Made by a program: the position numbers and the translations under genes
Shown here: positions 24,662 through 46,056 of the stretch, piece by piece
Layout of the letters: every line of letters starts with the position of its first letter
Position numbering within the stretch: the first letter of the stretch is position 1
NCBI GenBank assembly: GCA_014905635.1
Contig: JABVCE010000035.1
Span: forward strand, 248,001 to 312,000
Source: Scenedesmus sp. PABB004
Lineage: Eukaryota
Direction of reading: 5' to 3'
DNA length: 64,000 bases
The notes under the pieces: generated by a model
The model's input: the letters and a program-made list of their open reading frames with translations, nothing else
Database searches by the model: none
What the model was told of the DNA's origin: nothing

Positions 24662-25297
24662 AGCCACACTTCTAGAGGCAGGGCGATCCGCTCCCTCCCC
24701 GAGGGCCCGCGGCGTCGCCTCCCCGCGGACGTGTGCCGGCGGGTTTTGGCGCGGCTGACCGCGCTCGGCGGCGCCGCGGGCCCTTCGGCGCGCTGGCGGC
24801 GCTGCGCGGCGTGGGTGGGTGGGCGGCGCGTGGGCGCGTGGTGGTGGTGAGTGAGTTCCGACGACGGGGTGCGTCGCGTGAATGCGTGCCAGGGGGCCCC
24901 GTCTTCGTGCGTGCGTGCGTGTCGTGAAGAGATGACCGCGCCGCGCTGAGCCGGCATGCGCGGCGGCGTGATGCGTGGGGCGAGGCCGGCGATCGGCGGC
25001 GGCGGGTTGCTAGGATAGCACAGTCAGGCTCGATCTGCTGTGTGCGGGCCAGGCCAGGGCAGGCGTGCGCGGTGCGGCAACGACCCGAGTTGCGGCGCGC
25101 CCCGGCTCAGGCTTCAGCCCCGCGCCGCCTGAGCGAGTCAGCCCAGCCGCCGCCGCCTGCAGCAGCAGCGTCCGGCAGCGCACGACCCACCGCCGCATCG
25201 CCACGCACAGCCTGCTCGCGCCCCGCAGCCGACGCGGCGGTGCGGCGGTTGCACCGCCGCACCGCGCGCCGTGGCCGCGCATGGCCGTGCGGCGACG

Positions 25298-43166: not shown

Positions 43167-44421
<1,255 letters not shown>

Positions 44422-44941
44422 GCCGCCGCCGCGACCGCCGCCGCCGCCGCACGCGCGCTCCGGCGGACGTGTGCCGGGGGCTTGTTTTGATTCCGAATGG
44501 CTTGACGCAGGTGACGCTTGACAAGCGGTTTTCTATTACGACACGTGCACATGACATCACACACACAGCAGTGCTCCATTACGCACTAGGTTGGTTTTCA
44601 AACACACTGCTCGCCGGCGCTCGACAGGCTGAACACTCAAGCGGCGCTCAGTGAGCGCTGAGCGCCCGTTGGCCCTGCTCGGTGACTGCAGTCATTGCCA
44701 CCCACGGCACTAGCACGCTGCGATCTGCCAACGACTCTCATGCTGGCTGCAGAGTGGTCACCCCTGGCCGCAGCCAACCGCACGGCGCGCGCGTGCCTGG
44801 CGCTCGCTGCAGCGTCGCATGACCCCTGTCGTCCTGTCGTGTGTCCCGTGTGCGTGTCTGTAATATGTGCGCCTGTAACATGTGCGTGTGCTCCCAGCGC
44901 GCCCCGCGGGCACGGCTCGGCCGCCAGCGGCCGCAGCAGCA

Positions 44942-45035
44942 GCAGCAGCGCAGGCGCGGAGCGTCGGAGCCGCACCGGCTGCGCCAGGCAGGGCAGCGGT
45001 TGGGCGCGGCTCGTCATGCGCGCCCGCGCTGCTGC
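44942..45035 (-). promoter_or_regulatory. Eukaryotic SECIS element (form 2) in the 3' UTR of the DUF3253 gene
   Basis: Minus-strand RNA: helix I GCAGCAGCGCGGGCGCG / CGCGCCUGCGCUGCUGC; core AUGAC (45017-45013) opposite CGAC (44966-44963); 10-bp helix II GAGCCGCGCC / GGUGCGGCUC; unpaired AA (45001-45000) 11 nt after the core; apical mini-stem GCUGC/GCAGC. Confidence 0.88.
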
Positions 45036-45063: not shown

Positions 45064-45705
45064 TCACTCGCCGCTGCCGGCGTCGCTGGCCAGGCCGCCG
45101 CCGCGACCGCCGCCGCCCCTGCCGCTGGCCTCAGCGGGCGGCTCGGCTGCCTGCGGCGCACCGGGCGGCGGCGCGGGTGCCACCGCGCCGTCCGCCAGCC
45201 GCAGCCGCAGCCGGATCGGCCCCTTGACGCAGCCGCGCGGGTCCACCACCTGCGGCGGCGCCGGCGGTGGTGGGCGGCCGCGGGGCGCGGCGGGCTGCGC
45301 ACATGCGCGGGCCAGCCCGCCCCGCCCCGCCGCTGCTCGCCTGGCCCTTCTGCGTGATGTCGATGACCCCCGCCAGCGCGAGGCCTGTCGCTGCGCGCCG
45401 CGTCGCGTCCATCAGGGGCCGCCAGTCGGCGGGGCGGAGCTGCGCGCGCGGCCGTGGCGGGACGCGGCGATTTGCGGCGGCGGCGGCAGCGGGCGGCGGC
45501 TGCCGCGGCGCTGGTGCCGGCGCTGCCGCACCTGGCGCGGCACCTCGCTGGGTCAGCAGGTCGCGCCGCGGCGGCGGCCGGCGAGGAGGGCGAGAATGGC
45601 CGCGCCGAGCTGCTCCTCGTCGATCTCCGCCGCGCTGGCGGCGCGCGGCCGCTTGGCCGGCGCGCGCTGCTCGGCGGCGCCGCCGCCGCGCTTCCTGCTG
45701 GCCAT
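45064..45705 (-). CDS. DUF3253-family protein with in-frame UGA (candidate selenoprotein), 152 aa; exons 45705-45532, 45439-45341, 45249-45064
   Basis: Spliced translation MASRKRGGGAAEQRAPAKRPRAASAAEIDEEQLGAAILALLAGRRRGATC(U)PSEVPRQ|LRPADWRPLMDATRRAATGLALAGVIDITQKGQ|VVDPRGCVKGPIRLRLR.. follows the DUF3253 pattern as I recall it (IL.LL..R...TICPSE.AR....WR.LM..VR.AA..L...G.I.ITQKG..VDP....GPIRLR). TGA is at 45555-45553 (codon 51), both introns are phase 0, and a SECIS lies downstream. Confidence 0.88.
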
Positions 45706-46056
45706 GTCGCGCGGGGCCGCGTGGCAGCGGCGGGCGGTGTGGGGGCGGCAGCGGCTGCAGCGGCAGCGATTGCCCGGCCGGCGTCAGCGGCAGCGGCGGG
45801 GGTGTGTGGGCGGCAGCGGCTGCAGCGGCAGCGATTGCCCGGGCCACCTGCGTCACGGCGGCGCAGCGAAAAACCGCCGCCGCCGCTCGGCTGCGCTGCG
45901 CGCATCCCCGCCGCCTGCACAGCCCGCGACCAGACAGCGGCCAGCGCTCGACACCCGCGCCCGGCCACGCCTTCGCTGCGACACCCCGCGCCAACCGCCA
46001 GCGCCGAGCTCCGCCGCGGCGGCGCAGGCCGCGCGCCCCCGCGGCGGGCCGGCGAC

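Follow-up and report, generated by a model that had tools for sequence, protein, structure and literature searches.

The window analyzed here is a 64,000-nucleotide (nt) stretch of the genome of Scenedesmus sp. PABB004 (GenBank assembly GCA_014905635.1, contig JABVCE010000035.1, positions 248,001 to 312,000 of the forward strand), and all coordinates without a locus name are positions within it. On its minus strand lie a 152-codon, three-exon gene for a DUF3253 (winged-helix) domain, interrupted in frame by a UGA at codon 51, and, downstream of the gene, a hairpin at 44942 to 45035. We conclude that this hairpin is very probably a functional selenocysteine insertion sequence (SECIS) in the 3′ untranslated region (UTR) of the gene, with codon 51 recoded as selenocysteine (Sec, or U in the one-letter code); splicing, expression and recoding by the standard eukaryotic route are inferred, and very probable overall. 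The features, from 5′ to 3′ along the minus strand, are as follows.

45705 to 45532, minus strand: exon 1, with the ATG, a Lys/Arg-rich N-terminus, helix 1 and the T-C-U-P-S-E motif (from the translation and the alignment with bacterial homologs)
45555 to 45553, minus strand: in-frame UGA, codon 51, the predicted selenocysteine, aligned with the conserved DUF3253 Cys of C-P-S-E
45531 to 45440, minus strand: intron 1, GT-AG, 92 nt, placed by homology
45439 to 45341, minus strand: exon 2, the recognition helix and the start of the wing (PF11625, E-value 3.2e-7, over the cut-off; PDB 2NS0, E-value 1.3e-6)
45340 to 45250, minus strand: intron 2, GC-AG, 91 nt, placed by homology
45249 to 45064, minus strand: exon 3, the end of the domain, a low-complexity tail and the terminal UGA at 45066 to 45064 (from the translation and alignment)
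45035 to 44942, minus strand: predicted form-2 (type II) eukaryotic SECIS element (from the fold z-score, the mapped parts and its top rank among the window candidates)
45035 to 45019, minus strand: helix I, 5′ arm
45017 to 45013, minus strand: 5′ side of the core, AUGAC (UGAC at 45016 to 45013), read from the sequence
45012 to 45003 with 44976 to 44967, minus strand: helix II, 10 base pairs including one G-U
45001 to 45000, minus strand: unpaired apical AA, 11 nt after UGAC
44997 to 44993 with 44982 to 44978, minus strand: apical stem, GCUGC/GCAGC
44966 to 44963, minus strand: 3′ side of the core, CGAC
44958 to 44942, minus strand: helix I, 3′ arm, completing a helix of 17 base pairs including one G-U

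The three exons tile the DUF3253 domain without gaps in an alignment with 30 bacterial homologs. Exon 1 falls just short of the Pfam cut-off (PF11625, E-value 3.9e-4), and exon 3, which has no Pfam match alone, completes the domain in that alignment; protein searches with single exons as queries returned no matches. L137, a homolog, is likewise interrupted at the site of intron 2, and a GC donor is apparently used by the genome's glutathione peroxidase (GPx) gene as well, both as judged by eye. Upstream of the UGA, exon 1 offers no GT or AG/GC donor able to splice the codon out. The window gene is the sole DUF3253 match in its genome, and a contig scan of genomes returned one locus, L022, which is spurious. 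In the 5′ region of the gene there is a direct repeat of ~45 nt (45735-45845, minus strand), and a divergent neighbour begins only ~330 nt from its ATG.

In eukaryotic recoding, SBP2 binds the kink-turn core of a SECIS and eEFSec delivers the Sec-tRNA. Here, SBP2 would bind the kink-turn core of the hairpin in the DUF3253 3′ UTR, eEFSec and Sec-tRNA would recode codon 51 as selenocysteine, and the terminal UGA would remain a stop. The distances are consistent with this scheme, as the in-frame UGA lies 538 nt from the AUGA of the core in the genome and 355 nt from it in the mRNA with the splicing inferred above, which exceeds the minimum of 51-111 nt given for type II SECIS (PMC3753652, Mariotti et al. 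2013), and the terminal UGA, only 46 nt from the AUGA core, falls below that minimum and should therefore stay a stop. Between the stop codon and the hairpin there is no UGUAA signal; a UGUUA variant comes after the hairpin, at 44880 (minus strand), where it coincides with two UGUAA signals of a convergent plus-strand gene (44860-44880), so that the 3′ ends of both genes probably overlap a little past the SECIS. That gene also contains an intron filled by ~240 nt of near-pure GCC repeat (43966-44206, plus strand), either genuine or introduced by the assembly.

Structurally, every part that a sequence-only reading of the window had assigned to a form-2 SECIS, namely the AUGAC...CGAC quartet, a 10-base-pair helix II with one G-U pair, the AA, the GCUGC/GCAGC stem and a helix I of 17 base pairs, maps to the minus strand as listed above; its background of ~80% GC agrees with the 79.8% of the hairpin itself, and its spliced UGA-to-SECIS distance of about 350 nt agrees with the 355 nt found here. 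Left free, the minus strand folds with an energy of −68.7 kcal/mol (z −5.35; none of 200 shuffled sequences was as stable), and forcing the quartet and internal loop open yields the same energy (−68.7), at zero cost. The UGAC/CGAC core can form tandem G.A pairs, as expected of the UGAN...NGAN core of type II SECIS. The unpaired adenines of such elements stand 11-13 nt after the core. Stability alone is little proof, however, because the plus strand of the same region folds well too (z −4.50) and CAG/CUG repeats make up part of helix I and inflate the value. Within the window, a looser SECIS rule produced 29 candidates, 8 with an apical A[AG], among which the hairpin ranks first and is the sole one with a 10/10 helix II. 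A second SECIS-like candidate at 24932-24972 on the plus strand (AUGAC, 9 pairs, AG, UGAU) lies ~780 nt behind an RNA-binding-type gene, shows by eye neither a helix I nor an in-frame UGA, and was rejected as probably a chance match.

Genome-wide, the sequence-only reading fared less well where it had taken the correct spacing of UGAC, AA and CGAC as independent evidence: the pattern UGAC-11 nt-AA-...-CGAC, which was derived from the window hairpin and an element behind the GPx gene, matches 128 times in the 40-Mb genome versus 249 times for a reversed control, and the primary motif letters alone are not rarer than chance. Because these spaced letters are not rare, the evidence for a SECIS lies in the combination of motif, perfect helix II and position. 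A hundred of the 128 matches were listed and fetched, copies of one repeat only partly, leaving 90 distinct matches; among the matches listed, helix II is complete (10/10) in just three, the next best being two with 8 pairs, and the three are the window hairpin, the GPx element and an element behind a Sep15/SelM gene. The GPx element (L019, 606-647, minus strand; G000:C7) begins ~60 nt past the stop codon of a glutathione peroxidase gene whose active site is encoded with an in-frame UGA, in an unusual U-P-L-Q context, and the Sep15/SelM element (L053, 1029-1076, minus strand; G000:C46) lies behind a gene with C-S-G-UGA. Since the pattern was built from the other two elements, the SelM element is an independent recovery. 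All three have the UGAC/CGAC core and the C-AA spacing in common, which, together with a gene UGA that aligns with a conserved Cys and recurs in homologs, upholds the form-2 reading of the hairpin. The comparison with Rfam SECIS models that the sequence-only reading proposed gave no match, and it is uninformative in this genome, as RF00031 returned zero matches genome-wide and missed the GPx and SelM elements too. With a broader pattern the genome yielded 2,867 matches. A model made from 14 elements of the homologs and of this genome (a poor alignment, with no base pairs) placed the hairpin far down its list at 5.8 bits (E-value 2.4), which does not count as support. The genome also has an Rdx-family gene, with no clear in-frame UGA within the matched part.

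Four of the six components of the Sec machinery were searched for, and all four were found in the genome: tRNA-Sec, SepSecS, an eEFSec domain and SelD. The tRNA-Sec genes, with a UCA anticodon, occur as four tandem copies at ~175-nt spacing (G000:C1:4384151-4384920, L007-L013), where most eukaryotes have one copy; a fifth match after them is weaker and shorter. These tRNAs bear on the alternative that UGA is read here as Cys or Trp through an altered code or leaky readthrough, independently of any SECIS. Codes with UGA as Cys exist in some ciliates, and the column is Cys in homologs of the window gene. We nevertheless regard this alternative as hardly credible, as UGA ends ordinary genes in this genome, including the DUF3253 gene itself and its plus-strand neighbour, the UCA-anticodon tRNAs found are tRNA-Sec, and hairpins occur behind the UGA-bearing homologs described below, not behind the bacterial ones.

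Scanning metagenomes with the pattern T-C-UGA-P-S/T-E-V/A-P/A-R returned at least 120 loci. Among the 120 listed, 52 match a DUF3253 hidden Markov model of bacterial homologs through the UGA at E<1e-14 and 3 more match partly (one at a contig end, two with introns), for a total of 55, the other 65 being chance matches. At 70% identity the 55 form 21 clusters, or about 20 sequence types among the matches listed, whose GC content at third codon positions (GC3) spans 0.14 to 0.93; the codons flanking the UGA vary synonymously, and the downstream reading frames are intact across these diverged types. By these sequences, Sec-DUF3253 is apparently a selenoprotein family spread over many microbial eukaryotes. 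One locus, L161 (a copy of the L136 type), has in-frame stops in the domain and an intact hairpin, and is probably a pseudogene. Could the window gene likewise be a pseudogene with a nonsense codon, and its hairpin a chance GC-rich stem or a leftover? Broken copies such as L161 do exist, the motif occurs 128 times in the genome, and high GC together with CAG/CUG repeats favours hairpins, as the plus-strand fold (z −4.50) illustrates. Against this, the same UGA stands before intact downstream frames in about 20 diverged types, the window gene is the only DUF3253 match in its genome, and a perfect helix II occurs in just 3 of the 90 motif matches among those listed, so that we consider a decayed gene very improbable.

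Behind these homologs, SECIS-like hairpins recur. Under a fixed rule, which called for such a hairpin 150-600 nt after the UGA, 13 of 21 representative loci have one (16 of 21 without the apical A[AG] requirement), compared with 1/21 reverse complements, 2/31 chance loci, 0/30 bacterial homologs and 18/210 shuffles (4/21, 5/31, 4/30 and 36/210 without A[AG]). Features outside the rule were scored in 16 elements, the window hairpin and those of 15 homologs, after one near-copy had been removed: an A precedes the UGA of the core in 14 of them and a C succeeds it in 14, and helix I stems average 5.47, versus 3.94 for swapped arms, with 0 of 2000 reaching 5.47 (window excluded). Helix II positions 1-6 are paired in 13 to 16 of the 16 elements, with several pair types, a pairing that the rule itself imposed. 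At two loci (L213, 1300-1343, minus strand; L188, 1241-1284, plus strand) the SECIS-like hairpin sits within coding sequence, across the last part of the reading frame, ~180-190 nt after the UGA.

Several observations weigh against a functional SECIS and a recoded UGA. The loose rule fires by chance too, as the 29 window candidates (8 with A[AG]) attest, and no Rfam family searched against the window matches the hairpin. Five of the 21 homolog loci have no hairpin under the fixed rule, a relaxed look having rescued none convincingly, and 3 more lack the apical A[AG]. Finally, the scan pattern fixed both the UGA and the preceding Cys, so that neither the ratio of Sec to Cys forms nor the conservation of that Cys can be read from the counts.

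Evolutionarily, the family extends well beyond its Sec forms, with a library search for DUF3253 returning 2,889 clusters. Of the 30 unselected bacterial homologs aligned with the window exons, 16 have Cys in the column of the UGA, as do 149 of the best 150 library hits, for which the search profile was itself Cys-biased; 14 of these 150 read 'CC' at the site and 113 read 'IC'. None of the 30 bacterial DUF3253 matches, taken from 301 genomes of one phylum, has an internal stop. A Cys-form homolog from Chlamydomonas sp. UWO 241 is the best-scoring of the homolog set, with 47 of 76 residues identical to the window domain, so that Cys forms occur in eukaryotes too. Together with the 80% GC and the short introns, this match makes a chlorophyte host probable. 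Cys-Cys and Sec forms intermingle in a tree that is quick and weak (86 columns) and shows neither a single origin nor the order of fusions. Next to the 30 bacterial loci (91 of 105 neighbouring frames scanned; alphaproteobacterial-type loci L106-L128) we found rhodanese 3 times, DUF599 3 times, DUF218 3 times, and a sulphur transporter and an MGMT (O6-alkylguanine alkyltransferase) gene once each.

For the protein, we modeled the intron-free domain of the homolog L159, which gave a confident fold (predicted local distance difference test, pLDDT, of 96) in which the Sec position immediately precedes helix 2. This model aligns with PDB 2NS0 at Z 13.9 (root-mean-square deviation, rmsd, 2.1 over 81 residues); the next neighbours are the Z-alpha domains of ADAR1 and ZBP1 (Z 8.7 and 8.4, rmsd 1.9 and 1.8, 62 residues), an Rrf2-type protein (8.4) and PefI (8.0), and Foldseek returned only 2NS0 at E<0.001. 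On this model, the window product is predicted to be a stand-alone DUF3253 winged-helix domain with Cys-Sec-Pro just before helix 2. Reactive thiolates are often found where a helix starts with Cys or Sec and then Pro. The window domain is basic, with 14 Lys/Arg and 6 Asp/Glu, and its N-terminus, with 7 Lys/Arg among the first 30 residues, is a putative nuclear signal.

The fusions of the Sec homologs point to DNA. In 6 of the 21 clusters (5 of the about 20 types) DUF3253 is preceded by an MGMT domain, whose active-site codon is UGA in all but L185, and such fusions carry two UGAs and one SECIS. In L185, a Cys-bearing MGMT is fused to a UGA-bearing DUF3253, so that the Sec of DUF3253 is retained and that of MGMT is not. 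In a fusion with two UGAs, L142 (811-850, minus strand; a cluster of 14 loci), the hairpin starts a few bases past the stop and lacks the apical AA, and P-U-Q-R stands in place of P-C-H-R at the MGMT site. A SAP domain accompanies one Sec-DUF3253 type, and 120 long homologs include 5 photolyase-related fusions, 48 with PF14328 and 19 with PF10013. Because of the MGMT, SAP and photolyase-related fusions, the basic winged helix and the bacterial MGMT neighbour, we favor a role in nuclear DNA-damage handling with Sec as the nucleophile, with slightly less than an even chance of being right. In such a role the helix-capping Sec would be a reactive nucleophile, for instance one that takes up alkyl groups or other adducts sacrificially, beside the often-fused MGMT. 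The bacterial Ada protein offers a parallel, its N-terminal domain partnering its alkyltransferase. More tentatively, in a reading more likely wrong than right, DUF3253 may be an old, widespread and hitherto overlooked eukaryotic selenoprotein family whose winged-helix Sec would act directly on damaged DNA, as a second sacrificial repair activity beside MGMT.

The repair role faces objections of its own. The window gene and 15 of the 21 clusters have no MGMT domain (several loci have <300 nt upstream), no PF01035 match was found on the minus strand between 40001 and 52000, and the genome's own MGMT is a separate Cys gene on contig C31. Cys is absent in 14 of the 30 bacterial homologs, and their neighbours lean equally to sulfur handling (rhodanese 3 and sulphur transporter 1 of 30). 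The last observation would suit another role for the same Sec product of the same SECIS, namely that the Cys-Sec pair is a redox or sulfane-sulfur switch, through a reversible selenenylsulfide or persulfide, toggling DNA binding by the winged helix. The vicinal pair is common to the Sec forms and all 14 'CC' library homologs, rhodanese adjoins 3 and the sulphur transporter 1 of the 30 bacterial copies, and the fold neighbours include sensor winged helices, those of Rrf2 type among them; yet most bacterial homologs have a single Cys (113 of the best 150 library hits being 'IC'), the partners in the eukaryotic fusions found are repair or chromatin domains, and the sulfur neighbours may reflect the synteny of one clade, which leaves such a switch conceivable, if rather doubtful. 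Still with the same SECIS and Sec, the pair could instead sense or scavenge soft metals or metalloids (Hg, Cu, As) by binding them, in line with the CU motifs that mark metal-handling prokaryotic selenoproteins such as SaoL and MbdU (PMC13188914); with no metal-resistance genes among the 91 bacterial neighbours scanned or among the fusions, we think this improbable. DNA-damage handling remains the role that we favor.

With respect to earlier work, an algal survey lists 42 selenoprotein families, about half of them thioredoxin-like, and its main text contains no 'DUF' and no DUF3253, its supplement being a part that may bear on novelty (PMC7539508); it names MDP and, in that text, mentions no second Sec. 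The 'hypothetical proteins 1-3' of Ostreococcus, as given in the supplement of PMC2375036, were considered as earlier sightings and proved to be other proteins, not DUF3253. The searched text of PMC6627142, PMC13188914 and PMC13326102 is without DUF3253, that of bioRxiv 10.1101/314781 is without 'DUF', and no paper found in the open full-text literature names DUF3253 or the 2NS0 protein. Sec-DUF3253 is apparently an undescribed eukaryotic selenoprotein family. New families of this kind are rare, and a winged-helix Sec that recurs over GC3 values of 0.14-0.93 suggests that selenoproteome counts for microbial eukaryotes are incomplete. For the uncharacterised DUF3253 family (2,889 clusters), the Sec points to the probable active residue, and a role in DNA repair can be tested directly thanks to the MGMT fusions. 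If Sec did act on damaged DNA, a fold other than thioredoxin would be carrying out DNA repair that depends on selenium, and a bacterial DUF that counts thousands of clusters would gain a function.

Compared with known systems, the element very probably belongs to a familiar class of RNA, the type II SECIS, with a core that looks lineage-specific, and its worth lies in the gene that it marks. With the type II SECIS of the published description it has in common helix I, the internal loop, the UGAN/NGAN core, a helix II of ~10 base pairs, the unpaired adenines, the extra apical helix and a position in the 3′ UTR more than 111 nt from the UGA. Unlike the published UGAN/KGAW core consensus (PMC3753652), its 3′ core is CGAC and not KGAW, a point against the assignment, and it differs further in a helix II that is all but one G-C and in being missed by RF00031. 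These departures are common to the genome's GPx and SelM elements and hence look lineage-specific; together, the three UGAC/CGAC elements, none of which Rfam detects, make up a SECIS form that can guide searches for further genes of this sort.

Among proteins, the closest relatives are the bacterial DUF3253 proteins (PF11625; PDB 2NS0, Rhodococcus RHA04536), which the window gene resembles in its Pfam and PDB matches, its fold and the C-P-S-E motif, and from which it differs in having Sec for Cys, a preceding Cys, introns and a Lys/Arg-rich N-terminus. The MDP/MGMT selenoprotein (PF01035) is similarly a DNA-linked selenoprotein, and 6 of the 21 clusters have it fused to Sec-DUF3253, whereas the window gene has neither the PF01035 alkyltransferase domain nor a Sec in a P-C-H-R site. 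The Z-alpha domains of ADAR1 and ZBP1 are the next fold neighbours after 2NS0, but they are tied with the Rrf2-type protein and PefI at 16-18% identity, and a Z near 8 may mean a common fold only. Z-alpha contacts Z-DNA through Asn, Tyr and Trp residues, and helix 3 of the homolog alignment has no conserved Asn or Tyr. Lastly, SELENOH is a nuclear selenoprotein with a DNA-binding AT-hook and its Sec in a thioredoxin-like fold; the window protein is likewise small and probably nuclear, but would carry its Sec inside the winged helix itself.
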